Source: an uncultured bacterium (GTDB taxonomy: Bacteria > Fidelibacterota > Marinisomatia > Marinisomatales > UBA1611). From it: 64,000 nt of DNA. Shown here piece after piece: positions 33,510 through 64,000 of this stretch. Position 1 is the stretch's first letter. Each line of letters begins with the position of its first letter. Both the position numbers and the translations under genes were made by a program. The notes under the pieces were generated by a model. It was given only the letters and a program-made list of their open reading frames with translations, was not told the origin of the DNA and searched no databases. Where the stretch lies: the NCBI GenBank assembly GCA_964525185.1, contig CAZGFQ010000006.1, positions 3,573 to 67,572 on the forward strand. Reading direction: 5' to 3'.

Positions 33510-33584
33510 TCATTCTTTCATCGTTTAGTTTTAACTGATTGCGACGTAAATTTTGGGACATGAAAAAAAAGGATTCAGACTCTT

Positions 33585-42812: not shown

Positions 42813-42906
42813 TTTAACTCCTTTGTTTGTTTTTCTTGCTTGCAAGCAACAATAAATGGGAATACAATCTGTATTTTACTCCACCTATTGCGCCTTCTAC
42901 CTTCGT

Positions 42907-47000: not shown

Positions 47001-47313
47001 AAGGATCGTTTGGTCTTGATTTTGCACTTATCATCCAAAGACCAGATTGAAAAATAGCAAATTTGCCACTCCCCTTTGGCCATTCAGTTCCAGAACTTCC
47101 CGTTACGTGATAACTTGATACGTCGCCATGATTACCATGTACAGTGGAAATATTATTTCCATCCCATAAAACGTGTTCAATTACACCCGAGTTAGGAAAC
47201 ATAGATTTGAACAATCCGTTCGCATGGTCTGGGTCTCCTACTTTATTTGTTGGTTCTGCAGCCATTAGCATTGTGCCCATAGCCAACAGAAGAATTATTT
47301 TTTTAATTTGCAT
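44023..47313 (-). CDS. ~1100-aa secreted protein: unknown N-terminal domain, FN3-like middle domain, T9SS/FlgD-Ig-like C-terminal domain (module A)
   Basis: I prefer the ATG at 47313 (MQIKKIILLLAMGTMLMA), which follows AGGAGA. FN3-like PPAPEVEVSQMDRKVVLSFEG...FQGYNIYQGES. CTD INVFPNPYFG...IRIYTISGDLV...WDLRNSNGIPVASGVYIAYITV. Paralogous to 54518-57817. Confidence 0.75.
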   Translation of the reverse strand: MQIKKIILLLAMGTMLMAAEPTNKVGDPDHANGLFKSMFPNSGVIEHVLWDGNNISTVHGNHGDVSSYHVTGSSGTEWPKGSGKFAIFQSGLWMISAKSRPNDPSLSDEDDTTPYTDDVRSAASEYSAEFVPGNMSGTSDGHIYQIHRAELDAFLENDYATYSAMSASLPITKIDGANIFTEPATKSFPTSDFENWPAEDGAPWIDANGDGVYNIQDGDYPDILGDMFHWYVMNDGDAATHQNLWGTVPMGVEVQTSVFGFNQAGALGNILFVRWVAINKGTDDLDSVYVSMWHDDDVGDASDDLVGCDTLLSVGYTYNAGADMLYGAGVPAAGADFFQGPLVDSEGDTASILTWSQDSSYFVKTFNGKKRLGLTSFAKYTNSDPTAGDPETAEEALNYMNGRNGETGEQFVDPGTGEPTLFRHAGNPVTGAGDLDHTEGDRRYMMTSGPFTFNVGDTAEVVGSIIIAASGDWQKSITKMKYYDNFAQGAFDANFNVCSPPAPEVEVSQMDRKVVLSFEGIAEKVEEYSCAGYGFQGYNIYQGESAVGPWKRITTYDLVDDIKLIIDQGLDDATGELLEFPSQFGTDTGIDHFIEIDQDYVDGGLLINYREYYFAVTAYAYDPEAAKRVIESPIYSYTAIPNPPGVGTELAIGNNENVEYSHTSGTAGTSIYPNVVDPYLLTGELYSVTVEEADSTRSKWVLSSGGEVVAEDTLFPITQDYFAILKDANGGIDPDGVYINNTITDGFILTFQDGLWDVNDYSSATETVADTVNSALAFSGLGSGGFSAWADYMNFLFDAYGANAGFSPANGVPGVADKQRDLELRFTENGSIASYANIQSLRGNVDPDTIMIPFELWDVEGGEERQINVLTYQVAGASKPSSLIEGAIFNEDETVSHWAFSANFQYVPVYTDYNASSVSPIHPQNNADQTGWVLNFDRNNTVWQGGDQIEIVFDNPLVQGVDEYQFTPIGTASSADVSLDIEKINVFPNPYFGQNPEEGNPQGRMVYFTHLGVGTSTIRIYTISGDLVTRFDHSVESENAAGGNRAVWDLRNSNGIPVASGVYIAYITVTDENGSAIGEKILKLAIFQPEERLDLF

Positions 47314-47345
47314 TGTATTATATCTCCTATTTTCCTGACTCATCA

Positions 47346-50300
47346 TTATAAATCAATCCTGAAACCAATTCGTACTTGTCTTGGTTCTTCCCAATTATAA
47401 GGATTTGACAGTTTGGAATTATAAAGGTTAGCGGCTTGTTCCTGTGTCGCTGTTCCATTAAAAGCAGCAGTTGTCATCCAATTAACACCTTCATCTGTTC
47501 CAAGCCAACCATCATTATCAGCTTGACCAGTTGCGGGATAAATTGTACTTACATTTCTGAAATCTAAGAGGTTTTTCACCCAGACAAAGAATTTCATATT
47601 GTATTTACCAAAACTCAAACCTTTGTCCACTTTTAAATCTACATTCATAGACCAAGGCATATTTGCTGAATTAAATGCAGCAGTAGGTCGGTAAGAAATT
47701 CCACCTGTTAAAACTTCTGTGTCTACTTGGACTGGAGTGTACGGAAGACCACTACCAAATCTCATTAATAAATTCATACCAAATAATGGTAATCTAGAAC
47801 GAGCTCCTGTGCGGTAATCAAGCGCTAGATTTCCAGTGTGGCGCTGATCAAAATCAAGAGGTGAAACATAGGTTAAATTATTACCACCTTGCCAAGCAAT
47901 ACGATAATTACCACCTGCGCTTGACCCTGTACCCCCCGCATACTGTAGAGTGTAATTCGCATCAAGCATTAAATTACTTACTCTCCGAGTTTTTAATGAT
48001 AAGCTTAATCCTTTAACTGTACCATAATCCCCATTCACATATAGAGCATATCCAACGGGACGTGCAGCAATATTTCGAATTTGAGGGTAACCTGTCATTT
48101 GTTTGTAAAAAACGGTAGCATCAATACTTATATCAGACGAAACCATTTGTTTAAAACCAATTTCGTATTGTGTGTTTTCTTGTGGTTGTAAATCTGGGTT
48201 TGCGGAAATAGTGAAATTCCCTTGGCTCAAATTTTGAACAAATCGAATATAACTTACAAACAAACGATTATTTTCAGGCTGTTGGAAATATTTTCCATAC
48301 TGTGCGTGAAATACCGTTTTATCTGAAATTGGGAATGCCATACCAACACGCGGGCTAATTAATGATCTTGGTTCTGCATCAATACGGTGTGGACGACCTG
48401 TTTCATCTTCCGATGTGGGGTCCCAATAAATATATTCAGCGGGATCTAATATGCCATTTTCATCCGCATCTTTTGCATAAACTGTTTCAGCAATTTGATT
48501 GTTATCATCAATAACAATATTATTTGCTCCACCTGTTTCAGGGTTGAAAATTTGGTTCGCTGGGTCGAAATAATCATAACGTAATCCTAAATTCAAAACT
48601 AAATCGTTTAACTCAATTTTGTCTCGAAGATAAAATGCTCTGCTATTAGGGCGACGCGCATCATCTTGACCTGAGTTTACTTCTTCTTCACCTGTAATAT
48701 TGTATCCAATATTTTCAGCATAAGCAGATGCATACGCTTGATGTTTATAATTACCAAAATAATCATCATAATCTGAATCGCCATCGCCGTCATAATCATC
48801 ATTTTTCCAGGAATCAGTATCATCTTGAGTATAATCTAAGACGCCATCTTGACCCATAGTGACAGACAGTGCGGAATCTAAAACGACACCATTTGAATCA
48901 GTATCAGTTGCAACCCATTCATAATTCCAAATATCTTGAGTTCCTGAATATGGCGCATTTACTGAAAAATAGTTTGTAACAGAACGAGAGCGGCTCAACC
49001 TATAATAACGAATCATACTATTTGTTATTTCAAATCCTGCTTTCAATTCGTGATTATTATACTGCCACGTCAATGAACCGGTAAATGCATCTCTAGAAGT
49101 GTTGCGTTTTGTATAATTACTTCCGTCTGCGCTTGTATATCCAGCTTTAGTATAGTTTGCTAATTCTAAATCTGGAGTTGGCATTTTTGCATTTCCGTTA
49201 TATAGTGGGTTGATATAATTCATATCGTCATACCGCATTTCGTTATAATGCCAAAATGCTGTTGAGTCCCACGCCCAATATACACTTGTATCTTGAGCCC
49301 ACGATTGTGAACCAATATCTACCGTATCGAAATTCCAATAATCATAATCATAAACACCTAAAATATTATCATTAGAGTCAGTGACCACATATTGATAAAC
49401 AGGATCACTAGTATAATCATACATTTTACCTGAATTAATATAAGGAACTTCCAGTCCAGATAATGTTCCGTCTTCATAAGTAAATTGACCATAACTTTGA
49501 TCAAAAACAGGATCATAATACTTATACGAATCTTCCGAGTGACTGTATTGCACATTAAAAAACATATTTTTAAATGCAGGAATAGCGCCACTCAAATTAC
49601 CATAGTAAGATAAAAACCCATTGTCTGATTTATTAAATCTATTTATCCAATCGCCTGTGCCAACTTTATTGGATGTGCTATTTGGGCTATACATATCGAA
49701 CAAGGAGCGTGAATGACTATAATTAGATCGCTCACTATTAAATGATGACCCACCTATTTTTAATTTCCAGGGTAATTTAAACTTTGGCTGAAAATCAATA
49801 AGGACGTTACCGGCAATACTTGATTTTTCAATCCAGTTATTTGGCTTAGGCCCCCATCTATATTCTACATCGTCAGCTGAAATATCGCGATAATCTGGCG
49901 CGTCGTATTCGCCATTACCGTTATTATCTGTATATACTTCTGCGGGAGTATCAATGCCCTCATCGTAAACACCGTTTGCATCTTTATCAATAAAATCATC
50001 CCAAATGGTATTCCCATTTGCGTCAATATAATTATCACCAACATCAGGCCGGCCTGCAGCATCAAGTTCGCCTGTATAATAAGGGATTGTTGCATTTGTT
50101 GGGCTTGCATCTGCTAAACTAGATTGTTCAACAGAAAGGAAGTATCGTAACCAGTTTAATCCTGGAACGGGTCCACCTAAAGCAAATGAACCTAATTGGT
50201 ACCCGTAAGAATAAGCGAATGGTTTATCTACTGATGCATCGGGAGAACCAAAATCTTTAATACCTTCAACGGTAATATCTAAATCAGATCCACCTGTTTT

Positions 50301-50990
50301 TGTTGTTGTTTTAACAATACCAGAATTAGCGGATCCATATTCAGCTCCAAACCCACCTGACTGAAATGATACTTCTTCTAAACTTAAATTTGGCACGTCA
50401 CCTGCGCGACCACTTGTATAAGCATTGTTAACATAAACACCATCCACGTAAAAGCCAACTTCATCTGTACGGCCACCGCGAATATGGAGATTACCACTTG
50501 CATCTGTAACAACACCTGTTTGAAGCGCAACAACGTCAGCATAACCTCGTACGTTCATATTTTGAATGTCTTCTGAGCGAACAACGCGAACTTCATTTGT
50601 AGCATTTATTTCAATAAGTGGTTTATCGGCAACAACAACAACTTCTTCGCCCTCTAGTGCTTCAGAAGCAAGTTTAGTTTCAAAAAGATTTGTGGTTAAG
50701 TCTGACGTAACCCGAACTTGTTCGATAGTAACTGCGCGATATCCGATAAAGCTAAACTTTACATCGTAAAGTCCCGGGGAAACATTTAAAATAACAAACG
50801 ACCCCGTTTCCGTTGTTGCAGCACCATAAGAAGATCCAGCAAGCATAACATTTACGCCTGGCAATGGACTGCCATTTTCTTTATCCACAACTGTCCCTAC
50901 AACTTTACCAACGTCACCTGCAAATAGGTGGCTGGTTAATAGCAGAAACAAAACAGCTTTTACGTGGAAAACTCTTTTTAAAGTATCCAT
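47346..50990 (-). CDS. SusC-like TonB-dependent outer-membrane receptor (CarboxypepD_reg + plug + large barrel) (module A)
   Basis: Signal peptide, then GKVVGTVVDKENGSPLPGVNVMLAG...GSFVILNVSPGLYDVKFSFIGY (carboxypeptidase-regulatory-like). Plug region IRGGRTDEVGFYVDGVYVNN...FGAEYGSANSGIV. Long beta-barrel with acidic DxDxDG-type inserts. Confidence 0.8.
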   Translation of the reverse strand: MDTLKRVFHVKAVLFLLLTSHLFAGDVGKVVGTVVDKENGSPLPGVNVMLAGSSYGAATTETGSFVILNVSPGLYDVKFSFIGYRAVTIEQVRVTSDLTTNLFETKLASEALEGEEVVVVADKPLIEINATNEVRVVRSEDIQNMNVRGYADVVALQTGVVTDASGNLHIRGGRTDEVGFYVDGVYVNNAYTSGRAGDVPNLSLEEVSFQSGGFGAEYGSANSGIVKTTTKTGGSDLDITVEGIKDFGSPDASVDKPFAYSYGYQLGSFALGGPVPGLNWLRYFLSVEQSSLADASPTNATIPYYTGELDAAGRPDVGDNYIDANGNTIWDDFIDKDANGVYDEGIDTPAEVYTDNNGNGEYDAPDYRDISADDVEYRWGPKPNNWIEKSSIAGNVLIDFQPKFKLPWKLKIGGSSFNSERSNYSHSRSLFDMYSPNSTSNKVGTGDWINRFNKSDNGFLSYYGNLSGAIPAFKNMFFNVQYSHSEDSYKYYDPVFDQSYGQFTYEDGTLSGLEVPYINSGKMYDYTSDPVYQYVVTDSNDNILGVYDYDYWNFDTVDIGSQSWAQDTSVYWAWDSTAFWHYNEMRYDDMNYINPLYNGNAKMPTPDLELANYTKAGYTSADGSNYTKRNTSRDAFTGSLTWQYNNHELKAGFEITNSMIRYYRLSRSRSVTNYFSVNAPYSGTQDIWNYEWVATDTDSNGVVLDSALSVTMGQDGVLDYTQDDTDSWKNDDYDGDGDSDYDDYFGNYKHQAYASAYAENIGYNITGEEEVNSGQDDARRPNSRAFYLRDKIELNDLVLNLGLRYDYFDPANQIFNPETGGANNIVIDDNNQIAETVYAKDADENGILDPAEYIYWDPTSEDETGRPHRIDAEPRSLISPRVGMAFPISDKTVFHAQYGKYFQQPENNRLFVSYIRFVQNLSQGNFTISANPDLQPQENTQYEIGFKQMVSSDISIDATVFYKQMTGYPQIRNIAARPVGYALYVNGDYGTVKGLSLSLKTRRVSNLMLDANYTLQYAGGTGSSAGGNYRIAWQGGNNLTYVSPLDFDQRHTGNLALDYRTGARSRLPLFGMNLLMRFGSGLPYTPVQVDTEVLTGGISYRPTAAFNSANMPWSMNVDLKVDKGLSFGKYNMKFFVWVKNLLDFRNVSTIYPATGQADNDGWLGTDEGVNWMTTAAFNGTATQEQAANLYNSKLSNPYNWEEPRQVRIGFRIDL

Positions 50991-51221
50991 AAGTAACTCC
51001 TGACTAACTAATCAATGTGTAAAATATTAAAAACCTCGGCTTTTTGGGGTGTAACTAACCCTAGAGCGGAAGGGAATATGTAACATTTTTTCAAATGATT
51101 CAAGAAAAAACAAGATAAATATGCCTTTTGAAAATATAGAACTTTTCCCTTGATACAACCACACCTAATGCTCTACCTTTACCTTTATTTTCAACCTGCG
51201 TTATTCTGGAGGAAGCGCTTT

Positions 51222-54200
51222 ATGAAAAAAACATTATTCTATTTCATTATTGTATCTTTCCTGTTTGCTGGTGATACTGGGAAACTCAAGGGGATTATTA
51301 CTGACCTTACGTCCGGAGATCCGCTGATTGGCGTGAATATCGTTTTAAAAAATACAACAATGGGAACCGCATCCAGTCAAAATGGTGACTATTCCATTAT
51401 TTTTATACCTGCTGCAAAATACACGGTTTCTGTATCATACATTGGCTACAAAACAATTATTGTTCAGGATGTAATTATTAATGCAAACCATACTACGCAA
51501 TTGAATTTCAAAATGGATATATCTGCGGTTGATGGTGAAGAAATAACCGTGGAAGCAGAAAGACCAATTATTGTTCGAGATCAAACAGCAACAACCATTA
51601 CGATGGAAGAAGAAAAGTTGGAAAATATGCCTATCAACTCCTTTGAAGATGCCATGACAACAATGGCTGGGGTTATTGAAAATGATAATTCAGAAAGTGG
51701 GATTCATTTTAGGGGCGGGCGTACTGGAGAGGTTACTTTCCTTGTGGATGGTTTTGTTGTTGAAGATGCGCTATATGGGGAAATGGGTATGGATGTTTCT
51801 CGAAGTGCCATTTCTGAATTATCTGTAATTACTGGCGCCTTCAATGCAGAGTACGGGGAAGCTATGAGCGGTGTTGTAAATATTGTAACAAAAGAAGGTC
51901 GTTCAGATTATTCGTGGAGTCTTCGCGGTGTTTCCGATAACTTTTTTAACAACGAAATTAATGACTGGGATCAATCTCGAATTGAGGGAACTTTCAGTGG
52001 CCCCCTTCTATTTTTCAAGCCAAATATTGCAACTTTTTTTGTTTCTGCAGATCGTTTAAATACACGAACATCTCTTTGGAAAAATAAATTACCTTTCAAT
52101 GTATGGAAAGATGTAAATGATGACGGTATTGATGGAAATTGGCTCGATTTGAATGAAGATGGTATTGAGGATGAAAATGAAGTCGATACATTGGCGATGG
52201 CTGATATTAATTTAGATGGTATCCCAGATCTACTTTCAGAGGGTAATATTGAAGAGTCGGGCGCTTATCGTATTCGAGATCGTTACAATGCTAAGCTAGT
52301 CTTGCGTCCCATTTCAAAATTAAAACTTACCATAGGGTACAATAAATTTTCTGAAGAATCTCAATCTTTTTCTATGAGTTATAGACAGCTACCCGATCGA
52401 AGTGGAATTGATTTTGACCTTTCGACTGATTTACAAATAAAAGCAAGCTATGCTGTTTCAGAGGATATGTATATCACCGCTCGTTACCAAGACCATAAAA
52501 CAGAATCATGGTATGGCTATGAAACATTATTATCCGAGAATCATGAACTAGAAAGTAAAATAATAAATATTCCTAAAGGATGGGAAGGATACACGCCCGA
52601 AACAGTTCCTGCTGGAGAAGATTACTTATGGTTGGGATATTATGCTGAACCTTATGCAGACATGAATGGTGATGGTGTTTGGAGTATTTATTCAACTGAA
52701 TGGTGGAATGATGAGAATGGAAATGGTATCTGGGATAATGATGAACCCTATAGCGACTGGAATAATGATAGTTCGTGGAATGTCTTTAATTGGGAAGATG
52801 AAAACGGTAATGATGCTTGGGATGCCGGAGAAGCTATTCTTTCTGATGAATATTGGGATATTCAATCGGGCGCAACATCCACAAATCCTGAAAATTATGA
52901 CTGGGGCGTTGATGCGCGATTAAGAGAGGGCGACGCATATGATAATACATCAAACTATGAATTTTACGGGCGCTACAATATTTATAACATTTATGGAGAT
53001 TCGATAAGAGAGGGTGTTTCCACAATGCATGATTATACGTGGTATAAATCTAACTATAAAAGTTGGGGTGGAGATATTACTTGGCAAATTAATAAACAAC
53101 ACCAATTAAAGGCGGGGTTTGAACAAAAAAAATATGATTTAGCTCGATTTGCGGCGTACGGAATTGGAGGTGGATATTTTGGCAATTCCGGCGATCCGTC
53201 CTTCATTATGTATGAGCATCAACCTGAATCTCAAAGTTGGTATATCCAAGATAAAATTGAATATAATGATGTGGTCGTTAATATCGGGATTAGAATGGAT
53301 CAGTTAGACCCAAAAAGTCACTACCCAGACCCAACTCAAGAATTGGGGTATTATTATTCTGATGGTGGCGAAACTGTATGGATTGAACCGAGTGATGTCG
53401 GTTCTCTAACTGTCGAAAATTCTGAAAATTTGGAATGGGGTTACTTAAATCGAGATGATAATGGAAATATCACAGGTGGAACGCCAGCACCCGATGCTGA
53501 AATTAAAAGTCAATTTAGCCCAAGGTTAGGTATTGGGTACCCCATAACGGATAAAGTTGCTTTTCATTTTTCGTATGGACACTTTTACCAGTTTCCAGAC
53601 TTGTACTATATGTATAATTATGGGAACCAAGAAGGAAATAACATTGCAGCTCCGGGGTGGTCTGGCAATGCAAATTCCATGGCTCAAAATAATAATTTAT
53701 ATGGGAATAATTTATTTCCATTTCCATATAATTTATCCGATTGGTATATCCCGGAAGTTGGGAGTCCAAATGTAAGCCCTCAGAGATCTGTGCAGTATGA
53801 AATGGGGCTAAGAACCTGGATTGGAGAACATTATGTATTAAGCTCCACTTTATATTATAAAGATTTGTTTGATTATGCCGCTTCTCGGATTTATGATGCC
53901 GACCCACAACAATATGCAGTTTATGAAAATATGGATTATGCAAATTCCCGAGGATTTGAAATTTCTCTAGAAAAACTATTTTCAAATAATTATAGTTGGT
54001 ACATCAATTATGCTATGGCCCGCGCGGAAGGTAATGCGCCTAACTCATCTTACCATTGGGATGTGGCTTATTTGGAATCCGTCTACGGGTGGCGTGATTA
54101 TAATCGCACATTTACGATGGACTGGGACCAAACACATACTATAAACATCGGGATTGATTATCAACATCCAAAAGGGTTTGGAATAAATGTATTAGGAAAT

Positions 54201-54515
54201 ATTGGAAGTGGGTTGCCTTACACACCTACAGACTCCAGAGGGCGCCCAATTGATGAACCAAATTCAGGTCGAATGCCGCCTACTGCAAATTTCAATATGA
54301 AAGCATTTTACGATTTGCCGGTTAAAAAAACAAAAGCACGATTATTTATGGATATTACAAATGTGTTTAATTATCAAAATGTGCTTCGCGTCTTCGGAAA
54401 TTCAGGACAACCTGATGTAAATCTAAATCCCAATATTTCCCCTATGTATCTATGGCGTCCATACTATTACAGTTCGCCTAGACATATTGAAGTTGGCTTA
54501 AGTGTAGGAATGTAA
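51222..54515 (+). CDS. SusC-like TonB-dependent outer-membrane receptor (module B, paralog of 47346-50990)
   Basis: I prefer the ATG at 51222 (MKKTLFYFIIVSFLFA), 8 nt after GGAGGA. The ORF-track TTG at 51150 has no Shine-Dalgarno. Same domain order: GKLKGIITDLTSGDPLIGVNIVLKN..., FRGGRTGEVTFLVDGFVVED, FNAEYGEAMSGVVN. Confidence 0.8.
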   Translation: MKKTLFYFIIVSFLFAGDTGKLKGIITDLTSGDPLIGVNIVLKNTTMGTASSQNGDYSIIFIPAAKYTVSVSYIGYKTIIVQDVIINANHTTQLNFKMDISAVDGEEITVEAERPIIVRDQTATTITMEEEKLENMPINSFEDAMTTMAGVIENDNSESGIHFRGGRTGEVTFLVDGFVVEDALYGEMGMDVSRSAISELSVITGAFNAEYGEAMSGVVNIVTKEGRSDYSWSLRGVSDNFFNNEINDWDQSRIEGTFSGPLLFFKPNIATFFVSADRLNTRTSLWKNKLPFNVWKDVNDDGIDGNWLDLNEDGIEDENEVDTLAMADINLDGIPDLLSEGNIEESGAYRIRDRYNAKLVLRPISKLKLTIGYNKFSEESQSFSMSYRQLPDRSGIDFDLSTDLQIKASYAVSEDMYITARYQDHKTESWYGYETLLSENHELESKIINIPKGWEGYTPETVPAGEDYLWLGYYAEPYADMNGDGVWSIYSTEWWNDENGNGIWDNDEPYSDWNNDSSWNVFNWEDENGNDAWDAGEAILSDEYWDIQSGATSTNPENYDWGVDARLREGDAYDNTSNYEFYGRYNIYNIYGDSIREGVSTMHDYTWYKSNYKSWGGDITWQINKQHQLKAGFEQKKYDLARFAAYGIGGGYFGNSGDPSFIMYEHQPESQSWYIQDKIEYNDVVVNIGIRMDQLDPKSHYPDPTQELGYYYSDGGETVWIEPSDVGSLTVENSENLEWGYLNRDDNGNITGGTPAPDAEIKSQFSPRLGIGYPITDKVAFHFSYGHFYQFPDLYYMYNYGNQEGNNIAAPGWSGNANSMAQNNNLYGNNLFPFPYNLSDWYIPEVGSPNVSPQRSVQYEMGLRTWIGEHYVLSSTLYYKDLFDYAASRIYDADPQQYAVYENMDYANSRGFEISLEKLFSNNYSWYINYAMARAEGNAPNSSYHWDVAYLESVYGWRDYNRTFTMDWDQTHTINIGIDYQHPKGFGINVLGNIGSGLPYTPTDSRGRPIDEPNSGRMPPTANFNMKAFYDLPVKKTKARLFMDITNVFNYQNVLRVFGNSGQPDVNLNPNISPMYLWRPYYYSSPRHIEVGLSVGM

Positions 54516-54517
54516 AC

Positions 54518-57500
54518 ATGAAAAAATATTTAATAATTACCTTATTACTTAATATTGCAATCCATGCGGGTAACCCAACAACTGGGCTTTCTAAACGTGA
54601 ATATTATAATCAATTTATAGCCCCTTCAAAAGGACGAGCTCCTCTTGGTAGACCCGCAGCATATGACGACAGAAAGCGAAGTGTTCTTGATAAAGGAAAT
54701 ATGGTTTTACGTTTATCGAATGCCGCAATTTATGGATATGATCGCTGGGGATTAAACCATGAATTCCCCGCTGGAAGCATGATAACAAATGGGTGTTGTA
54801 CATACTATTGGACACAAGCACCCATGGTGGGTGCATTAAAAAATGGTGTCCCATCTGTCTCTGTGGGTGTTCGGGGTTCTGTACGAGATTCGGAAGAAGA
54901 GTTTGAACCGTTACCGGGTTATGATGCTGGATATAGTGACACAGATCAAAATATTGGAATTGCTTTCAGCGATATGGAGCAATCTTGGCCAGATCGATGG
55001 CCTATTGAAGCGGATCCAACAGGAACGTTTGCATCCGTTTTGTATGATGCAAACGGCAATGTTGAAGATACGCTTTATTTCCCTGGCGTGGAGCCGGCGT
55101 TAGGGCCGGAAGGATTCCCGGATGCTCCATGCGGATTGGGTGTTCAAGCTGACAGAGAAGCTTATTTTGTTGTAACTGATAATGACCCAACAGATGGAAA
55201 TACTTACGCAAGCAACAATGGCGTTGGTCCACTAAATGTACGTATCGATACTTGGGTATTAAATTATGCAAATACCTTTGGGAATGATGGACTTATATTT
55301 ATTCAGAAAATGACAAATGTGGGTAATGATACCTTAAGGGATTTATACTTTGGAATCGCTGGAGATCCAGATGCGCCAGAACAAGGAAGCGCGGAATGGA
55401 CTGATGATTTATGTATGCTCATTTCTGCAGATGATCCTCACATTGCAGAAAAATTATCTGACACTACGGATGCACATTTATTAGAAAATTTAGCCATTGT
55501 TTGGGATCCGGATGATGAATCATCGGGGTTTGTGTCATCTGGACTTGGGTGGATTGGACTCAAATTTCTTGAATGTACAAAATACAATATGGATGGTTCA
55601 ATTCAATCATATGATATTTCAACTTTTTATACATACGAATACAGTGAAGATTCCCAAAGCGACAATGATGCATATAATATTCAAATGAGTCATGGAATAC
55701 AAGAACCACATAATATTGAACCGCCTTCTAATGATTTATTCCAAAAACCTTATTCTTACGGCCCTGATATAACGTGGATTGTTGCTGCGGGCGGACCAGA
55801 ACAAGTAACAGCAGATGGCGATACTATTCCAGAAATGGCTGTGGCGCCGGGAGAATATGTCATTTTTACTTTTGCTGATTTTATGGGAATTAATGAAGCG
55901 GATTTATTAAGGAATGCAAAAGTTTTTCAATCCTTATATGATAACAATTGCGCCAGTCCACAACCACCACAACCTCCAGTTGTACATGCCGTTCCGCAAG
56001 ATGGAAAAGTTGCTCTATTCTGGGATAATCGCAGTGAAAATTCTATCGATCCTGTAACAGGAAATAATGCATTCCAAGGATATCGTGTTTATAGAAGTTC
56101 TGATCGGGGAAATACCTGGGGCTCAGTGGTAACAGATTTTAATGGCAACCCAACTGATTTTTATAAACCGCTGGCTATTTTTGATAAAATGGACGGACTC
56201 AATGGAGCCTATGCAATGTCTGACCCATTAATTTATTATAATCTCGGAAATGACGACGGATTACGTTATTCGTTTATTGATCAAGATTTGGTAAATGGTT
56301 ATGAATATTGGTATTCCATTTCTGCTTATGATGGACCTGACGATTGGTCTGGAGCCCGTGTGGACCCCATGGAAAATGCTAAAGTAAAGAATGCATTTAT
56401 AGATGGAGATAATACCATTTCAATTGTTCCGCAAGGCAAGTCCCTTGGGCATGAAATTGGAGATAAAAATGTAATACATACGGGTATAGCAAAAGCTACT
56501 TTGAGTGCGGTGGATGCAGAAGCATTTGTCTTTGATTTTTTAGGTGAAGTAGAAGTAGAAGAGTCCGATTTTGTAAGTAAGGGCTATTCGTATTCCGTTG
56601 ACTTTTATGATGATGGAATATCTATAGATTCTACCGATGATGATATGGCAAACTGGGATACAACGTATTTTTCATATTGGACATTAACAAACTCAACAAC
56701 AGGAGAAACTATTATAGATCAAGATTCCGATGTAGAATCAGGTAAAATGAAATATGTTATTGATGGTTTTATCCCCGTCTTCAACAATGCATCGTTTACC
56801 ATTTCTGGAGCAGACACTGTTATTCATACTGTTTTAGATAGTCTTGCATCAAACCTTGCTTTTACAGGTGGTGGAGCATCTGGGGCTGCCAACCCATCTT
56901 GGGGTGGTTTTGTTGACTATTTATATAATAATTATCCTGCATCCGCTGGATTTTCTCCACCATCCGATATTATTAGCTATAAAGAATTGGGTGTTGATCT
57001 ACAAATTAGATTTACAGAATCGGGGTCCATTGCATCATACTATAATTTAAATATTCTGAGAGGAAATGCTGACCCAGATACTATACAACTTCCCATCGAA
57101 ATATGGGATACAGAAAATAACCAACGACTTAACTTAGCTGTTTATCAGGTTGCTGGGAATTCAAAGCCAGTTCCTCCGTGGGTACCAGACAGTTCAATTG
57201 TGGTTGATTCTGTTTTCACAAATTCTGACACCACGCTTGATTCGTCTTGGGCTCATTATTACTCCCTGTCTACTAATTTGCAATTAGTTCCAATTCATGA
57301 TGAGTATATTGGTTCATCCAATACATATCACTTTGCAGAAGATGCCGGTCTTATGGGGTGGGTCTTGAATTTCAACACAAGTAATTTACGTTTTAATTAT
57401 GGCGATATATTAGATATTGTATTCCCAAACCCTATTGTTCCGGGAGAAGATCAATACATAATTCAAACTACAGCAGATGGTACCTCGTCAGATTTAGATT

Positions 57501-57817
57501 TAAGTGAAATTTTAGTTGTTCCAAATCCGTATGTTGTCACATCTGCTTACGAATATATTCAATATCAAAAAGAAATTCAGTTTACCCGCCTTCCTGAAGA
57601 ATGTATGATTCGTATTTACAATTCAGCGGGGGAATTGGTTCAGGTGATTAACCATGAAGTCGGTAGTCCTGGGTATCGAGGGTCTAGTATTGAAGCTTGG
57701 GATTTACGAACATATAATAATCAAGATGTAGCTTTTGGAGTATATATATTCCATGTAGTTTCTGGAGGATTTGAAAATGGGAAGGAACATATTGGAAAGT
57801 TTGCGGTGATCAAATGA
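54518..57817 (+). CDS. ~1100-aa secreted protein with FN3-like and T9SS/FlgD-Ig-like C-terminal domains (module B)
   Basis: Signal peptide. PPVVHAVPQDGKVALFWDN...FQGYRVYRSSDRGNTW (FN3-like). IRFTESGSIASYYNLNILRGNADPDTIQLPIEIWD matches LRFTENGSIASYANIQSLRGNVDPDTIMIPFELWD in module A. CTD ILVVPNPYVV...IRIYNSAGELV...WDLRTYNNQDVAFGVYIFHVV...GKFAVIK. Confidence 0.75.
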   Translation: MKKYLIITLLLNIAIHAGNPTTGLSKREYYNQFIAPSKGRAPLGRPAAYDDRKRSVLDKGNMVLRLSNAAIYGYDRWGLNHEFPAGSMITNGCCTYYWTQAPMVGALKNGVPSVSVGVRGSVRDSEEEFEPLPGYDAGYSDTDQNIGIAFSDMEQSWPDRWPIEADPTGTFASVLYDANGNVEDTLYFPGVEPALGPEGFPDAPCGLGVQADREAYFVVTDNDPTDGNTYASNNGVGPLNVRIDTWVLNYANTFGNDGLIFIQKMTNVGNDTLRDLYFGIAGDPDAPEQGSAEWTDDLCMLISADDPHIAEKLSDTTDAHLLENLAIVWDPDDESSGFVSSGLGWIGLKFLECTKYNMDGSIQSYDISTFYTYEYSEDSQSDNDAYNIQMSHGIQEPHNIEPPSNDLFQKPYSYGPDITWIVAAGGPEQVTADGDTIPEMAVAPGEYVIFTFADFMGINEADLLRNAKVFQSLYDNNCASPQPPQPPVVHAVPQDGKVALFWDNRSENSIDPVTGNNAFQGYRVYRSSDRGNTWGSVVTDFNGNPTDFYKPLAIFDKMDGLNGAYAMSDPLIYYNLGNDDGLRYSFIDQDLVNGYEYWYSISAYDGPDDWSGARVDPMENAKVKNAFIDGDNTISIVPQGKSLGHEIGDKNVIHTGIAKATLSAVDAEAFVFDFLGEVEVEESDFVSKGYSYSVDFYDDGISIDSTDDDMANWDTTYFSYWTLTNSTTGETIIDQDSDVESGKMKYVIDGFIPVFNNASFTISGADTVIHTVLDSLASNLAFTGGGASGAANPSWGGFVDYLYNNYPASAGFSPPSDIISYKELGVDLQIRFTESGSIASYYNLNILRGNADPDTIQLPIEIWDTENNQRLNLAVYQVAGNSKPVPPWVPDSSIVVDSVFTNSDTTLDSSWAHYYSLSTNLQLVPIHDEYIGSSNTYHFAEDAGLMGWVLNFNTSNLRFNYGDILDIVFPNPIVPGEDQYIIQTTADGTSSDLDLSEILVVPNPYVVTSAYEYIQYQKEIQFTRLPEECMIRIYNSAGELVQVINHEVGSPGYRGSSIEAWDLRTYNNQDVAFGVYIFHVVSGGFENGKEHIGKFAVIK

Positions 57818-58890
57818 AGAAACTTTTATTTATCTTAACAACATTTGCAATTTTAAATGGGCAATTCGACAATGCATCAACATCGGCAGCTAACTTTTTG
57901 AAGGTTGAAGTAGGCGGACAAGCAGCAGCAATGGGAGGTGCATTCACAGCACAAGTCAGTGATGTGTCTGCCTTATTTTGGAATCCTGCTGGAATAACCG
58001 GTATCGGCAAATCAGAAGTAATGATAAGTCAAACAGAATGGATTGGAGATATTAATCATAATTTTCTTGCTGCCGCTGTTAAATTTGGCCGACAAGGGTA
58101 TCTTGGATTAAGTATTAATCAAATGGCTTATGGTGAAATGACTCGAACGACGGAGTTTTCCCCTGAAGGAGAAGGTACATTTACCGCTAATGATTTGTCC
58201 CTTGGGTTAGCCTATGGCACACAAATCAGTGATAAATTTTCCACAGGAATTCAATTCAAAATCATTAGAGAAACAATTTCCTTTTCCAGCGCCAATGCGG
58301 TAGCTGTTGATGTGGGTTCTCAATATACAACATCATTTTCTGGATTAAAAATTGGAATGGCCATTACTAATTTTGGTTCAAAAATGACCCTAACCGGAAC
58401 GGATCAAAAAGTGGATATTGATGCATATGAAGATTTAAATGGTAACCCAGATGTGATTGCTCGACTTGGTACAGAACAATGGTCACTCCCAATGACATTT
58501 AAAGTTGGGCTCTCCTTTTCCCCCATTGGTCCAGATGCGATCATAAAACAAGAAAAAGTGAGCTTTATTATTAATACAGAATACAGTGACCCAAGAGATT
58601 TTAATCCTATTTATATGGCTGGCGCAGAATTGACAATAATGAAGCTTCTTTATCTTAGAGCTGGTGTTAAAAATACTTTTTTGAGATATCCAGATGATTT
58701 AGATGATGAATCAGATAAAGCAATGTCAGACTATGAAAAAGGTGAATACATTAATCGATTTTCTATGGGATTTGGGTTGTCCTCAAAGAATTTTCCATTT
58801 ATACCTTATCACTTAAATCTCGATTATGCCTACTCAGATTTAGGGTTGCTTGGCTGGGTTCCGAGACTAACAATAAAGATTAATTTCTGA
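57814..58890 (+). CDS. PorV/PorQ-family-like outer-membrane beta-barrel (module B)
   Basis: ATGA overlap with the upstream gene. SAANFLKVEVGGQAAAMGGAFTAQVSDVSALFWNPAGI is the family-typical N-terminal motif. Terminal TIKINF. Confidence 0.7.
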   Translation: MKKLLFILTTFAILNGQFDNASTSAANFLKVEVGGQAAAMGGAFTAQVSDVSALFWNPAGITGIGKSEVMISQTEWIGDINHNFLAAAVKFGRQGYLGLSINQMAYGEMTRTTEFSPEGEGTFTANDLSLGLAYGTQISDKFSTGIQFKIIRETISFSSANAVAVDVGSQYTTSFSGLKIGMAITNFGSKMTLTGTDQKVDIDAYEDLNGNPDVIARLGTEQWSLPMTFKVGLSFSPIGPDAIIKQEKVSFIINTEYSDPRDFNPIYMAGAELTIMKLLYLRAGVKNTFLRYPDDLDDESDKAMSDYEKGEYINRFSMGFGLSSKNFPFIPYHLNLDYAYSDLGLLGWVPRLTIKINF

Positions 58891-58893
58891 CAA

Positions 58894-61341
58894 TTATTTT
58901 AATAACGATATTTTCTTTGTTACTGTATTTGAATAATTACTCATTAAGGCTATATATATCCCAGACGGAACTAATTTGTCTTTTGAGTCAATTCCACTCC
59001 AAATAAAAGAATTTATTCCGCTTTTTGCTCTAATTGTTGTATTAAATATTTCTTCTCCTGAAATTGAAAATATTGAAAATTTTATTTCATTTGACTCTTT
59101 CGAAATAAACTGGATTTTCGTGCTAGAGTTAAATGGGTTTGGGTAGATTTGATGTATCATTAAACTTTGCAACAAGGTTGGGTGAATCTTAGCTGTCCCT
59201 GTTGTGCTCTCCATAAAAAAATAATTTGTATTTCCTGTTAATAAAATTTGTCCTTCCGATAATTTTGATAGAGAGTGGTGATTGACATATGTTGGGAGAG
59301 GCGCTGTATTGCTCCATTGGTTTGTCGATGGATCATATATTTCACAGTTGACTCCACTCCCTGTTATTAAAACAGTACCATCATTTAATCCAATAGTTCT
59401 ATGCCCATACCGATAGTCCCCGATCATTTCTTCTGTTTGGGTTAACTCGTTTGTTGTTGGGTCATAAATTTCCCCAAATTCAGAGTTTCCAGTAATTAAT
59501 ACTCTGCCATCATTCAATAATTCAACCTGGGGGGATCTCCGATTATATAACATTGTACCTACAACTGTCCATGTATTTTCATTAGGATCAAATAATTCAA
59601 CTTCAGGTATTTCAACACCCCACGCCTTTGAACCACCAACAACAAGAACTCTACCATCGTTTATTCGTATTGCAGCATGATTTCCACGAGATTCGTTTAA
59701 CGGAGCAACATCTATAAATGAATTCGATTGTTCATCAAATAATTCACAGCTTGATAATGATGTTTCTCCGTGAGGCGATACATTAAAACCACCAATAATT
59801 AAAATATTTCCATCTAATAGTTTGGTGGCTGTATGATTTGCTCTGGGAGTCAATAAAGTATCCATAAATACCCAATTATTGTCATCAATATCATATCGCT
59901 CAACACATACTATACTGCCGTATTCCGTTTCTCCACCCACTACCAATATGTCGCCATTATTCAATTTTGTCGATGTGTGTCCATACTTTGAATCATTTAA
60001 GGAATCGATAATAGTCCAAGAATAATCAATAACATCAAATATTTCACATTGATTTATGAGTTGCATGACATTATTTGTTAAGATTCGACCTCCTGCAACC
60101 AAAACATCTCCTGTTTCTAAAACAGTCGCGGTATGGTGTGTCCTTGGTTTATTCATTTCTGGTAAAATATTCCAACTATTATCTAATGTAACAACAGATC
60201 TTTCTCTTGTTTTTGTTGGTGCTTGGACCTTATTGGAATGAAAAGACTCCTTTCCGTTCGTGTGAACGGATGTTACATAGTATCTTGCTTTATTGTTTGC
60301 AAATTTCATATTAGCTATATCTATTTGAAAATCAAGATATTCACTCTCATCAGATGAAATAAAATCAATTTTTTCATAATTATTACAATGTAGATCGCTT
60401 TCACTTAATGCTCTATATATATTATACCCGATTAAATTGGGATCATTAATTAGTGACCATTGTAATAATGGGTGGTTCTGAACATTCGTCCAAATTAAGT
60501 TTGATGGAGCCGATAAAATAATTTCTACATCACTTAATATTTGATAAAAACTAAAGCTAGAGTGAATTTTCTCAAACTGACCAAAGGTAAAATGATTCAA
60601 ACATTCCAGGTTTGTATAAGACATAATATTTTCAGTGTCGGGGTTATATGGATCTTCATCAACAACATCACCGCTGTCGTTAAAGTCATAACAAACCAAA
60701 GGAATGTAATCACAATTTCCGTCGACGCACTCTCCGTGGTGTAAATCTGGATCAGCGGGCGTATCACACACACAATCTCCGGCAATGCTACAATTATTCC
60801 CAATCGGGTCTTCAATTTCAATTGAAAAATCGTGCGTGTGTAATAATCCGAGTGCATGCCCTATTTCATGAGAAATAACGTGCGATCCAAGCCACTCGCT
60901 ACCTATTACCACATTTTGACTAGGGATAGACCCTGTATCACCAGCGCCGCTTGGCCCAAGCAAATATATATCAATTGCATTTACATGTGAATATGAATTT
61001 TTTAAAGATTGGAAAGAGCCCGGTGTATTATTATAATAATTACTGTTTCTAATAATTTGCCTACCTACTTCAACGAATGAAATATTTCCATCATTAAAGT
61101 CATTATTTATAAATGTTAAATACTCATTAATATTTTCATTTGATACTACACTTGGCCCAATATCTGGATATATATGGTGAAAAAATATGGCTATTTCTCG
61201 ATTAGGGAATTGGTCCCCATAATTTTGAGTTTCTATACAATAATCTGGAATATCGGCGGTGTTAATACATTCTAAATTGTTTGAGTATACATTATTAAAT
61301 AGGGGTGGAATCAATATCGCTATATAAAAGAATCGACTCAT
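58894..61341 (-). CDS. Multidomain secreted protein: M43 (pappalysin/ulilysin-like) zinc metalloprotease + 7-blade Kelch-type beta-propeller + T9SS C-terminal sorting domain
   Basis: HEIGHALGLLHTH with a downstream CVCDTPADPD. Seven repeats of the type PRTHHTATVLETGDVLVAGG. C-terminus IYPNPFNSSTKIQF...SGIYIALMSN...KKISLLK. Confidence 0.75.
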   Translation of the reverse strand: MSRFFYIAILIPPLFNNVYSNNLECINTADIPDYCIETQNYGDQFPNREIAIFFHHIYPDIGPSVVSNENINEYLTFINNDFNDGNISFVEVGRQIIRNSNYYNNTPGSFQSLKNSYSHVNAIDIYLLGPSGAGDTGSIPSQNVVIGSEWLGSHVISHEIGHALGLLHTHDFSIEIEDPIGNNCSIAGDCVCDTPADPDLHHGECVDGNCDYIPLVCYDFNDSGDVVDEDPYNPDTENIMSYTNLECLNHFTFGQFEKIHSSFSFYQILSDVEIILSAPSNLIWTNVQNHPLLQWSLINDPNLIGYNIYRALSESDLHCNNYEKIDFISSDESEYLDFQIDIANMKFANNKARYYVTSVHTNGKESFHSNKVQAPTKTRERSVVTLDNSWNILPEMNKPRTHHTATVLETGDVLVAGGRILTNNVMQLINQCEIFDVIDYSWTIIDSLNDSKYGHTSTKLNNGDILVVGGETEYGSIVCVERYDIDDNNWVFMDTLLTPRANHTATKLLDGNILIIGGFNVSPHGETSLSSCELFDEQSNSFIDVAPLNESRGNHAAIRINDGRVLVVGGSKAWGVEIPEVELFDPNENTWTVVGTMLYNRRSPQVELLNDGRVLITGNSEFGEIYDPTTNELTQTEEMIGDYRYGHRTIGLNDGTVLITGSGVNCEIYDPSTNQWSNTAPLPTYVNHHSLSKLSEGQILLTGNTNYFFMESTTGTAKIHPTLLQSLMIHQIYPNPFNSSTKIQFISKESNEIKFSIFSISGEEIFNTTIRAKSGINSFIWSGIDSKDKLVPSGIYIALMSNYSNTVTKKISLLK

Positions 61342-61393: not shown

Positions 61394-62185
61394 TCACTTT
61401 CGAGTCCACGCCCACTGGAAATCCATAAACGGAATCCACGTTTCGGCCATGGGTAAATAGGGAAGTAAGTGTGTATCTATTCCAAATGGATATTCTCCAT
61501 GGACTACCTTATACCCTAAAGATATCCGGAAGCGGTCGCTTCTATTCCAACTCATCATTCCTTTATGTTCTAAAGCAAAAGACCCCTCCATTCCGGGAAG
61601 AAGATGAATATCCATATCTAACAAATAACGAATTTTTTCCGTGACTTTTCCTGCAAAATCAATACCTGTTCTTATTCCATAACCACTGTATAATGGCGCA
61701 AATCTGTGATAAGCTAATGGTAGATCTATGGTTGATCCTTTAGAAAGTTTTTCTGCGGCTAATCCAAGTGATACGCCTAGTTTAAATGTAATATTATATG
61801 GTTTTTGGTATCCCCAAGTGAATAATAATTCATTATAAATAATGGCTGCAGCGGGGAAAGTAAACTCAGGAGAAATAATACCTCCCGTCCCTTCTCTTGC
61901 CAACATATTCAGCAAAGGAGTTGGATATAAAATTGAGTGTCGAGATGATATATCAAATTTCCACCAAATATTTCGTGTTTTTTTTAGGCTCACATTGGGC
62001 ATTACAAAGAAATATACAGGATGAATGGACCACTCTTTATCGCCAGAAACACCAATCCTTAATGGTTGAAATAATCCAATTTCTACTCGTTTTTCTGGCA
62101 ATACATTCGCAGAATAAGATGACCAATTTTCGGTTTTACCAAAAAGTGATGATAATGCTATAGTTAGAATGAGTATATTTTTCAC
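61394..62185 (-). CDS. Hypothetical outer-membrane protein (probable beta-barrel)
   Basis: Signal peptide MKNILILTIALSSLFG and an amphipathic beta-strand pattern. I recognise no family. Overlaps the EEP gene by 4 nt. Confidence 0.45.
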   Translation of the reverse strand: MKNILILTIALSSLFGKTENWSSYSANVLPEKRVEIGLFQPLRIGVSGDKEWSIHPVYFFVMPNVSLKKTRNIWWKFDISSRHSILYPTPLLNMLAREGTGGIISPEFTFPAAAIIYNELLFTWGYQKPYNITFKLGVSLGLAAEKLSKGSTIDLPLAYHRFAPLYSGYGIRTGIDFAGKVTEKIRYLLDMDIHLLPGMEGSFALEHKGMMSWNRSDRFRISLGYKVVHGEYPFGIDTHLLPYLPMAETWIPFMDFQWAWTRK

Positions 62186-63315
62186 GGCAGTTTTAATATG
62201 GCAGATACAGCCATGTGATCCGATATATATTTATAATCTTGGTGTGTTTGATCCGAACCGGATTTCCAACCGTTAGAAATATTTGTAAATAAATAATCTA
62301 ATTTTCGATCGTAGTATGTTCCATTTCTATCGCTCGTGCTTGGAGCGTGTGTAAAATATGCCGGTTCGTTGTTTAAATAATCTTCCAATAAAATGGCCGG
62401 TTCATATGCATCATATAAAGGTTGAAGAATCATGGGTTCATTTTCAAAATTTTCAAAATAACTGCCATCTTTATGTTGTGGTTCATTTCCTGCCTGGTGA
62501 TACTGATCTCCTTCACACATATCCTCTAAACAAAAATCTGTAGAATCCGCACCCGGAGGCAATGAGTTTAAGTCACCACCCGTAACAAATAGAGCACCAT
62601 CAGTTGTTAAAGATTCTAAAGTTTCCAAATATGTATCAATATGTTTTTGCTTTGTGTCGTCTGTAGCAAATGCTGTTGCATGAATATTAACAGCATAAAA
62701 ATTGTCCATTCCCGGGACCAGTATTTGTGTTTTAAGAATACTTCTTCTTAAATAAAAGTATTGCACAATTGCTGCCTGATTTTCCATTAATGGGAGCTTG
62801 ATTCGTTCATAGTTACTTAATGGCCATTTTGATAAAATAACATTTCCCATATCCATTCGGCCAATGCCATCGCTGGGGATAAATTGTGAATTCCAAATGG
62901 TGGCATATACACCATAATTCATGTTTGTGTTGTCTAATAAATATTGAACTTGATCTATATAATTCGTCCGCTTTGAAGAGCGGTCCATTTCTTGAAGCAA
63001 CAGAATATCTATATCTTCCCTATTCATTCTATCCACAACAGAATCTAAATTTGTGTTAACTTCAATTTCGGTTAAAACAACGCGATCACCACAAGCATCT
63101 CCGAAAAATGGAATACGCCCACATCCAAAACGAATGTTCCAAGTCATGACCTTTATTTCATTTTCATGTGGCGCACCCACATCATTAATTATTTGAGATT
63201 CATAATAAATTGCATCTTCTACATCATTGTGCGTTTCTACAATGGGATCGCATCCCTGCAGTAGGAATACTCCTAATAATATAAAAAATAATCTATGTTG
63301 TCTTGCTGAATGCAT
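62182..63315 (-). CDS. Endonuclease/exonuclease/phosphatase (EEP)-family lipoprotein
   Basis: Lipobox LLQGC, plus EEP motifs VMTWNIRFG, DILLLQE, NIHATAF, GGDLNS and SDHMAV. Confidence 0.8.
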   Translation of the reverse strand: MHSARQHRLFFILLGVFLLQGCDPIVETHNDVEDAIYYESQIINDVGAPHENEIKVMTWNIRFGCGRIPFFGDACGDRVVLTEIEVNTNLDSVVDRMNREDIDILLLQEMDRSSKRTNYIDQVQYLLDNTNMNYGVYATIWNSQFIPSDGIGRMDMGNVILSKWPLSNYERIKLPLMENQAAIVQYFYLRRSILKTQILVPGMDNFYAVNIHATAFATDDTKQKHIDTYLETLESLTTDGALFVTGGDLNSLPPGADSTDFCLEDMCEGDQYHQAGNEPQHKDGSYFENFENEPMILQPLYDAYEPAILLEDYLNNEPAYFTHAPSTSDRNGTYYDRKLDYLFTNISNGWKSGSDQTHQDYKYISDHMAVSAILKLP

Positions 63316-63656
63316 TATAATAAGGCTAATACATTTTCCGGTGGTCGACCCATGGCCGCTTTTTCCCCCTTAACAACTATGGGACGTTCAATGATTTTTG
63401 GGAATTGATTCATCGCTTTAAAAAGATTGGAATCATCATTTAATACTTCTTTTATATTATTTTCTTTAAAGTCGCTCTCCCCTTTTCTAATAAATTCTGA
63501 AGGGCGCATCTTTAATTTCGTAGATATTGATTCCAATTCTTCTACGGTGGGTATATTTTTTAAATATTCTATAATAGTGGGTTCAACGCCATTGTCACGC
63601 AACAGCTGCAGAGTTTTTCTGCTCTTCCCTCACCTTGGGTTATGATATATAATCAT
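63315..63656 (-). CDS. arsC: ArsC-family (glutaredoxin-coupled arsenate reductase-like) protein with in-frame TGA at the catalytic Cys position: probable selenoprotein
   Basis: My extension of the 95-aa ORF starts at ATG 63656 (after AAGGA) and reads MIIYHNPR-[TGA 63632-63630]-GKSRKTLQLLRDNGVEPTIIEYLKN..., compared with R773 ArsC IYHNPACGTSRNTLEMIRNSGTEPTIILYLEN. The Arg triad is conserved (FIRKG, ERPIVV, GRPPE). Confidence 0.7.
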
Positions 63657-64000
63657 GATTTCCTTACTTTTATTAATTCTTCCTTATGGAATAATACGCA
63701 TAAAATACATGTAAAACATATTTGAATTAAACCCCGATATCCAATTACTTAATCATTATTAATCCGGCGGATGATAGTCGCCTGCCTGTTCTTAGTTGAG
63801 CGCAGACAGGTAAGTAATTTTGATTTTATTGCCTTATATATCCCACTTTTAGATGGGGATTTGTGGGGGTTGATAAAAAATAAAAGAAAATTAAAATTAC
63901 GATTAACTCTCGCTGAAGTAATAATTAAAAAATGTTAAACCTAATTCCATACAATAATAACTAATACCAATATATTTTATACATTTAATTGTTTTGTCTT

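Follow-up and report, generated by a model that had tools for sequence, protein, structure and literature searches.

The first prediction of a selenoprotein family annotated as 'arsenate reductase', with selenocysteine (Sec, U) in a UxxS motif, came from Sargasso Sea data, in which 14 sequences were recognised (Zhang, Fomenko and Gladyshev 2005, PMC1088965). The Global Ocean Sampling (GOS) data gave 77 Sec sequences in 23 samples versus 784 cysteine (Cys) homologues for this family, there called 'ArsC 1' (pfam03960) (Zhang and Gladyshev 2008, PMC2398784), which maps to COG1393, pfam03960 and TIGR00014. Reviews of 2022 and 2026 (PMC9312934, PMC13188914) list the family under TIGR00014 and describe such families as functionally uncharacterised. 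In the searchable literature we found no paper attributing selenoproteins to Marinimicrobia or characterising a Sec-type ArsC experimentally. Here, we analysed a 64,000-nt stretch of DNA (the window) from an uncultured marine bacterium of Candidatus Neomarinimicrobiota (Marinimicrobia/SAR406), in which an arsC-type gene on the minus strand is interrupted by an in-frame UGA. We conclude that the locus is very probably a genuine Sec-encoding arsC of 113 residues, with Sec replacing the nucleophilic Cys. An earlier note made from the letters of the window (the original prediction) had proposed this reading, stating that Sec-containing ArsC proteins had been predicted from marine metagenomes and were uncharacterised, in agreement with three of these papers (PMC1088965, PMC2398784, PMC13188914).

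The frame that opens at the ATG at 63656 reads MIIYHNPR*GKSRKTLQLLRDNGVEP... over 113 codons, and contains the following features.

63661-63665, minus strand: AAGGA, Shine-Dalgarno-like, 4 nt 5′ of the ATG (from the sequence)
63654-63656, minus strand: ATG start of the full-length protein (from the sequence)
63315-63656, minus strand: full-length arsC-type coding sequence, 113 codons including Sec9, plus the TAA stop (from the translation, PF03960 and TIGR00014)
63630-63632, minus strand: in-frame UGA, the proposed Sec9, in the UxxS motif U-G-K-S (aligned with Cys12 of plasmid R773 ArsC)
63600-63602, minus strand: TTG, the Leu19 codon and start of the called 95-aa open reading frame (ORF), inside the 5′ arm of a hairpin
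63486-63488, minus strand: Arg57 codon AGA, equivalent to Arg60 of R773 ArsC (ungapped alignment to 1JZW, offset +3)
63384-63386, minus strand: Arg91 codon CGT, equivalent to Arg94 of R773 ArsC (alignment to R773 ArsC and sequence)
63345-63347, minus strand: Arg104 codon CGA, equivalent to Arg107 of R773 ArsC (alignment to R773 ArsC and sequence)
63315-63317, minus strand: TAA stop of arsC (from the sequence)

The coordinates given in the original prediction for the AAGGA (63665-63661), the ATG (63656-63654), the TGA (63632-63630) and the TAA stop are all exact on the minus strand. Its statement that ORF calling shortens the gene also matches the output of the ORF lister, as the mechanical list holds just the 95-aa TTG-initiated ORF at 63315-63602 for this frame.

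For the hidden Markov model (HMM) scans of the arsC protein, Cys was substituted for Sec at the TGA. The protein matched Pfam ArsC PF03960 (E=1.2e-16, 61.2 bits versus a cut-off of 24) and the NCBIfam model TIGR00014, 'arsenate reductase (glutaredoxin)', at 128 bits versus a curated cut-off of 106.05. The score against NF007456 (PRK10026), 82 bits, is far under its 242-bit cut-off. The Spx models also scored far under their cut-offs, and membership among the Spx/MgsR regulators or the UxxC 'ArsC-like' proteins was ruled out by the motif UGKS and by a TIGR01617 (Spx/MgsR) score of 39.7 bits versus 75.05. ArsC homologues in the PDB were matched at E=4e-26 to 1e-18; the nearest solved chains, 3F0I (Vibrio) and 3RDW (Yersinia), are uncharacterised structural-genomics 'arsenate reductase' entries. 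The alignment with plasmid R773 ArsC (1JZW/1I9D) has no gaps and an offset of +3, which places the TGA (U9) on Cys12 and R57, R91 and R104 on Arg60, Arg94 and Arg107. The exact coincidence of the TGA with Cys12 and the retention of the three catalytic arginines, both claimed from inspection of the sequence, are thus confirmed by alignment. In the Sec-type alignment, R57 and R91 are invariant and R104 is conserved in at least 90% of sequences. Judged from its sequence, the protein is a glutaredoxin-type ArsC of the TIGR00014/PF03960 family.

Homologues were collected by a genome scan with one genome per species (80 loci) and by a metagenome scan with a Sec-type profile (80 more). The four closest loci of the genome scan come from Candidatus Neomarinimicrobiota species represented by metagenome-assembled genomes (MAGs) (L001-L004; 88, 85, 74 and 69% identity) and all carry TGA, while the remaining 76 carry TGT or TGC at this column. 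In both scans together, TGA was found in 44 loci plus the window, about 40 of the TGA-keeping loci being metagenomic, and Cys codons (TGT/TGC) in 113 loci. No scattered stops or frameshifts were present in the 157 homologue ORFs recovered. Among the top 120 clusters of the protein database, ∼50 read 'NPRWGKSR', with Trp at the site, and ∼21 are 95-aa truncations that start at the equivalent of TTG 63602-63600; thus ∼71 of them indicate a TGA at the site. The comparisons to which the original prediction had pointed, Cys orthologues opposite the TGA, other genomes keeping the TGA (the four MAG species, the ∼40 metagenomic loci and the ∼71 of 120 clusters) and possible decay of the orthologues, therefore all come out on the side of Sec. 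Three assemblies made independently from other samples match the window at ∼99.8% identity and have the same TGA and downstream sequence; because these keep both the TGA and the hairpin, a sequencing error is ruled out.

In a neighbour-joining tree, the Sec forms fall into two groups, a main clade of 32 unique sequences and a separate clade of three members. The minimum identity within the main clade is 58%, and the nearest true Cys homologue is 68% identical. The three-member clade (L121, L126 and L145, each at 1501-1839), recovered in the metagenome scan, has the motifs U-G/S-K-S and is 53-58% identical to the window protein. A Cys variant (TGC) is nested within the main Sec clade (L161:190-540, on the 1474-bp contig k141_1013909). 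Across the region displayed it equals L089 but for the change from TGA to TGC, and it keeps the full CGUGA hairpin. The variant may be a sequencing error in a single contig; otherwise it represents a Sec-to-Cys switch or polymorphism of very recent date that has left a 'fossil' Sec insertion sequence (SECIS).

The Trp in ∼50 database clusters arises because TGA has been translated under code 4 on short contigs. These clusters include P0001, P0007 and P0009-P0058, and several (e.g. P0001, P0014 and P0017) overrun the real stop. The anticipated mis-annotation by automated callers hence takes two forms, the 95-aa TTG ORF and the code-4 Trp, the latter being a systematic annotation artefact for selenoproteins on short metagenomic contigs.

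Two hairpins had been proposed as weak SECIS candidates downstream of the UGA.

63588-63606, minus strand: probable bacterial SECIS (bSECIS) hairpin, with 5′ arm GCUGUUG (63606-63600), loop CGUGA (63599-63595) and 3′ arm CAAUGGC (63594-63588)
63608-63622, minus strand: first hairpin, GCAG-AAAAACU-CUGC, which folds in the window but lacks conservation and probably lies outside the SECIS

Both exist in the window, and only the hairpin at 63606-63588 is conserved. In an alignment of 29 unique main-clade sequences, gapless from the UGA to +66, the helix formed by columns 27-33 and 39-45 (63606-63588) has 7 bp, with 99.5% of cells paired. Pair 27:45 occurs as AU in 18 sequences, GU in 6 and GC in 4; pair 30:42 as GC in 21, GU in 6 and AU in 2; and pair 29:43 as UG in 23 and UA in 6. 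Two of the helix pairs show double-sided compensatory change. The percentage paired and the covariation score were reached by none of 500 shuffles and lie above most slid controls, and RNAalifold returned this helix in all five regions tried. The first hairpin (63622-63608) is 88% paired, with two pairs broken in 8-9 of the 29 sequences, and appeared in two of the five RNAalifold regions as a 4-bp stem; it was dropped as a SECIS candidate. The conserved stem-loop sought by the original prediction is thus the hairpin at 63606-63588, with covariation.

Codon usage agrees with this assignment. Synonymous sites are fixed in the hairpin core (Leu+10 TTG in 32/32, Arg+11 CGT in 32/32 and Asp+12 GAC in 34/34), while outside the core the arginines at -1 and +4 use AGA/AGG and there is free variation in the neighbouring Pro, Ile and Leu codons. 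Among Cys homologues serving as controls, all seven pairs are present in 1 of 112 unique sequences. Two Cys forms with the identical LQLLRDNG peptide use AGG/AGA for the arginine, and so have no CGUGA loop. The minimum free energy (MFE) of the segment from the UGA to +50 has a median of -13.8 kcal/mol in Sec forms versus -8.1 in Cys forms, at similar GC content. The bSECIS consensus (PMC13188914) has an apical loop of 3-9 nt, a stem of 4-16 bp, a UGA-to-loop distance of 16-37 nt, a G at loop position 1 or 2, with G or U as the usual next base, and an MFE of at most -7.5 kcal/mol. The hairpin lies within its geometry and loop rules, with a loop of 5 nt, a 7-bp stem, loop positions 2-3 occupied by G and U, and a spacing of 30 nt. 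Finally, a custom scan of both strands of the 64 kb asked for TGA codons flanked on either side by open frame and followed 14-37 nt 3′ by a bSECIS-type hairpin; the arsC TGA alone passed. RNAalifold on four wider regions gave no fdhF-like larger structure or lower stem including the UGA. With Rfam, only a tRNA-Gln was found in the window at the gathering threshold, and a permissive scan gave a chance PhotoRC-I match (E=3.4).

Other explanations of the UGA have to be weighed against Sec insertion. If it were a true stop, the product would be a 95-aa ArsC-fold fragment without nucleophile, made by internal initiation or reinitiation at TTG 63602, and most gene callers annotate the locus so. This is very unlikely. 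Such a product is devoid of the catalytic residue and also of beta-1 and the P-loop-like HNPRU-GKS segment, its TTG lies inside the conserved hairpin arm with no Shine-Dalgarno-like sequence ahead of it, and in P0101 and P0078 the equivalent caller-chosen start is not M-initiated. Moreover, the signal for translation lies upstream of the TGA. In the main Sec clade an ATG is found 8 or 11 codons 5′ of the TGA, preceded by an AGGA-type motif in most of the 13 relatives displayed, and codons -6 to -1 (IYHNPR) show 115 synonymous versus 9 non-synonymous pairwise codon differences, a sign of strong purifying selection in frame. Selection at this place is incompatible with a functional product from the internal TTG and equally with a pseudogene, and selection on both flanks implies that ribosomes would pass through the UGA. 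A recent nonsense mutation or pseudogene must be considered extremely unlikely. The window sequence viewed singly is compatible with it, as are unremarkable fold z-scores, yet the TGA is kept at more than 45 loci, drawn from four or more named species and from numerous metagenomes, the homologue ORFs recovered have no extra stops or frameshifts, both flanks are under purifying selection, and independent assemblies concur; the comparative data effectively refute this reading. The preference of the original prediction for Sec recoding over a recent nonsense mutation is consequently upheld by the Sec/Cys column, the upstream selection and the conserved hairpin.

Reassignment of UGA to Trp or Gly in the host (code 4 or 25) has next to no probability. 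The ∼50 database clusters translated with Trp at the codon would fit it. However, 13 of the 44 non-overlapping ORFs that reach 150 aa or more (together 93% of the window under code 11) terminate in TGA, among them ispF (12925-13401) and the 1099-aa gene, both already cited as evidence that TGA is a normal stop here. Several of the TGA-ended ORFs show ATGA overlap junctions, and across the 64 kb we found no further gene broken by an in-frame TGA. The stops together with this absence exclude a reassigned code, and Cys stands at the column in 113 homologues. A further alternative, SECIS-independent read-through, would have a near-cognate tRNA (Trp or Cys) decode the UGA at low efficiency, perhaps stimulated by the hairpin, in a host without Sec machinery. 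It is favoured by the lack of Sec machinery in the sequences examined (the window, the 44 loci for tRNA-Sec and ±10 kb in three relatives), by the classing of SAR406 SelD as 'orphan' in 2016 (PMC5029168), by the TGC variant inside the Sec clade (L161), which indicates that Cys is viable at the site, and by the modest stability of the hairpin. We nevertheless judge read-through unlikely. An enzyme with Trp in place of its catalytic nucleophile would be inactive, and if Cys were inserted, the TGA should soon give way to TGT or TGC, yet it persists in a clade whose identities go down to 58%. Furthermore, the hairpin obeys the bSECIS-specific rules on the loop (G then U at positions 2-3) and on spacing, the second Sec clade has a hairpin elsewhere with the same CGUG loop start, and the published Sec-ArsC family has the UGA/Cys pairing as its standard signature.

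Several observations weigh against Sec insertion itself. Folded alone, the conserved hairpin reaches -5.0 kcal/mol in the window, with a range of -3.3 to -7.5 kcal/mol in the clade, and the value of -7.5 kcal/mol in the consensus is reached just with the non-conserved first hairpin (-12.7 for UGA to +50). Folding of the minus strand 3′ of the UGA, as the original prediction had suggested, does form both hairpins, but the single-sequence z-scores of -0.7 and -1.3 versus shuffles are unexceptional; folding one sequence thus left the question undecided, and comparative analysis was used for this reason. As much of the stem is invariant, the covariation comes from three pairs that vary within a set of related sequences; a high score is also reached by the +3 slid control, and the LLRDNG peptide is partly self-complementary, Cys forms typically forming 5 of the 7 pairs. 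As for the decoding machinery, no tRNA-Sec, selA, selB or selD was found within the 64-kb window (the SelA/SelB/SelD domain scan covered 40 window ORFs and left out four ORFs of ∼1100-1200 aa at 44023-57817), and no tRNA-Sec in the 44 related Sec-type loci; in three relative neighbourhoods (a 1.5-Mb contig and window-lineage contigs of ∼77-79 kb), the ±10 kb surrounding arsC had no sel gene either. In favour of Sec use, SelD was reported in three SAR406 single-cell genomes, though it was classed as 'orphan', with no other selenium-utilisation trait detected (Peng et al. 2016, PMC5029168); the neighbouring phylum KSB1 has selA, selB and selD (PMC9012183). A search for a second selenoprotein gene in the window gaps, in the locus flanks and by a CGUG-loop scan, ∼200 kb of related sequence in all, found none. 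In addition, the three relative neighbourhoods hold no ars genes (arsR, arsB/acr3, arsA/D) within ±10 kb of arsC, association with such genes being a common and not strictly defining feature of ArsC. Without an ars operon context, the assignment of arsenate as physiological substrate comes from homology alone.

With Sec at codon 9, translation would begin at the ATG at 63656, a start backed by the purifying selection 5′ of the UGA. The hairpin at 63606-63588 is conserved and fits the bSECIS geometry and loop consensus; with its CGUGA loop 30 nt 3′ of the UGA, it would be expected to bind SelB and so to recruit SelB-GTP-Sec-tRNASec, leading to Sec insertion instead of termination. By homology, the Sec9 selenolate, in an oxyanion pocket formed by Arg57, Arg91 and Arg104, would attack arsenate or a related oxyanion. 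The Se-As adduct might then be glutathionylated and resolved by glutaredoxin, as in R773 ArsC, where glutathione and glutaredoxin resolve the adduct. The lower pKa and higher nucleophilicity of Sec could favour turnover at nanomolar oceanic arsenate.

In the second Sec clade, the hairpin lies at +15 to +32 (AGAAGC-CGUGCA-GCUUCU and variants), with its loop 17 nt from the UGA versus 30 in the main clade. The loop again begins with CGUG, and one pair changes from A-U to G-C in a compensatory manner. Such a pattern points either to a separate origin or to relocation of the SECIS, with a common loop determinant. We give about even odds to a broader reading, namely that Marinimicrobia are a true Sec-decoding lineage with a clade-specific minimal SECIS (7-bp stem, CGUGA loop, 30 nt), and that Sec-ArsC arose, or moved its SECIS, at least twice. 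Under it, the second clade with a CGUG-loop hairpin 17 nt from the UGA means at least two origins or SECIS relocations. If true, this reading would explain the orphan SelD and tell which organism lies behind much of the 'ArsC 1' signal in the oceans.

Since the Sec-ArsC family has been known since 2005, the window gene is a further member and opens no new question. What is new is that a large Sec clade can be assigned to Neomarinimicrobiota MAGs, that its minimal SECIS, supported by covariation, has an unvarying CGUGA loop at +30 nt, that a further small Sec clade places its hairpin at +17 nt, and that mis-annotation is documented as widespread. Marinimicrobia (SAR406) are among the most abundant deep-ocean phyla. 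For this abundant ocean phylum, function prediction and selenoproteome counts are wrong at the arsC locus. A Sec-arsC would also tie selenium use to arsenic/oxyanion redox chemistry in Marinimicrobia, and the 19-nt covariation-supported SECIS is a compact candidate for reporter systems.

Downstream of arsC lies one further gene.

62182-63315, minus strand: endonuclease/exonuclease/phosphatase-family gene, 377 aa (Pfam PF03372)

Since its ATG shares 1 nt with the arsC stop, the two genes are probably transcribed together. The same arrangement is found in L001 and L163-165 and not in L004, L161 or L162. A promoter and terminator scan around arsC gave nothing beyond shuffle expectation. Past the high end of the window, upstream of arsC, relatives carry amt, P-II, glnA, an AsnC/Lrp-type regulator and a nitroreductase (L163:4998-9528, L001:494-2744); on the 1.5-Mb contig (L162) a nitroreductase lies ∼9 kb from the Sec-arsC. 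In L165:7042-8336, amt is called as two pieces (228 and 202 aa) versus one 431-aa gene in L163 and L164, probably because of an assembly frameshift. For the ORF at 61394-62185 (263 aa, no Pfam match), L163 and L165, both 99.8% identical to the window and alignable to it on each flank, have ∼100 nt where the window has ∼330 nt (∼61450-61779), and no 263-aa gene is called there, while L001 has the intact 263-aa ORF; the difference at 61450-61779 is strain-level indel variation in an unannotated gene.

Elsewhere in the window, a cluster of very large ORFs (797-1214 aa) spans 40452-61341. It includes proteins with type IX secretion system (T9SS) C-terminal sorting domains at 40452-42845 and 58894-61341, the latter with Kelch repeats and an N-terminal metalloprotease-like HExxH, as well as a PorV-like gene at 57814-58890 and a TonB-dependent receptor, so annotated in the relative L163. 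One TGA-joined ORF pair on the plus strand (32763-34379) was tried as a read-through fusion and rejected as a coincidence. It consists of two unrelated genes with a 75-nt spacer, a SpoU-family methyltransferase ORF (32763-33509) and a CPBP/Rce1-like protease ORF (33585-34379), in the same frame and with two TGA and no TAA/TAG between them.

Compared with known systems, the window protein has in common with the glutaredoxin-coupled ArsC of R773 and E. coli the HNPxC/U-G-x-SR motif, the residues Arg60/94/107 and an ungapped alignment. It differs from R773 ArsC in the proposed Sec in place of the Cys12 nucleophile, in its length (113 aa versus 141), in the lack of an ars operon and in scoring far under the NF007456 cut-off. 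The selenoproteins 'Arsenate reductase 2' and 'Arsenate reductase-like protein' (UxxC; cd03032, NF041106) and the Spx/MgsR proteins (TIGR01617) belong to the same ArsC/Spx thioredoxin-like superfamily (PF03960), but the motif here is UxxS and the window protein lies outside both groups. The hairpin resembles the E. coli fdhF-type SECIS and the bSECISearch model in being a coding-region stem-loop right 3′ of the UGA, with a small loop having G then U and a spacing within 16-37 nt. It has no sequence likeness to the fdhF SECIS, no conserved lower stem or bulged U was detected, and unlike the bSECISearch model it is, alone, weaker than -7.5 kcal/mol. The closest system is the 'ArsC 1' family. With it the locus has in common the fold family, the UxxS motif (U-G-K-S), Sec at the catalytic Cys column, a marine-metagenome habitat and a small-loop bSECIS with a G in the apical loop just 3′ of the UGA; we found no qualitative difference between the two, and the window protein looks like a member of this family.

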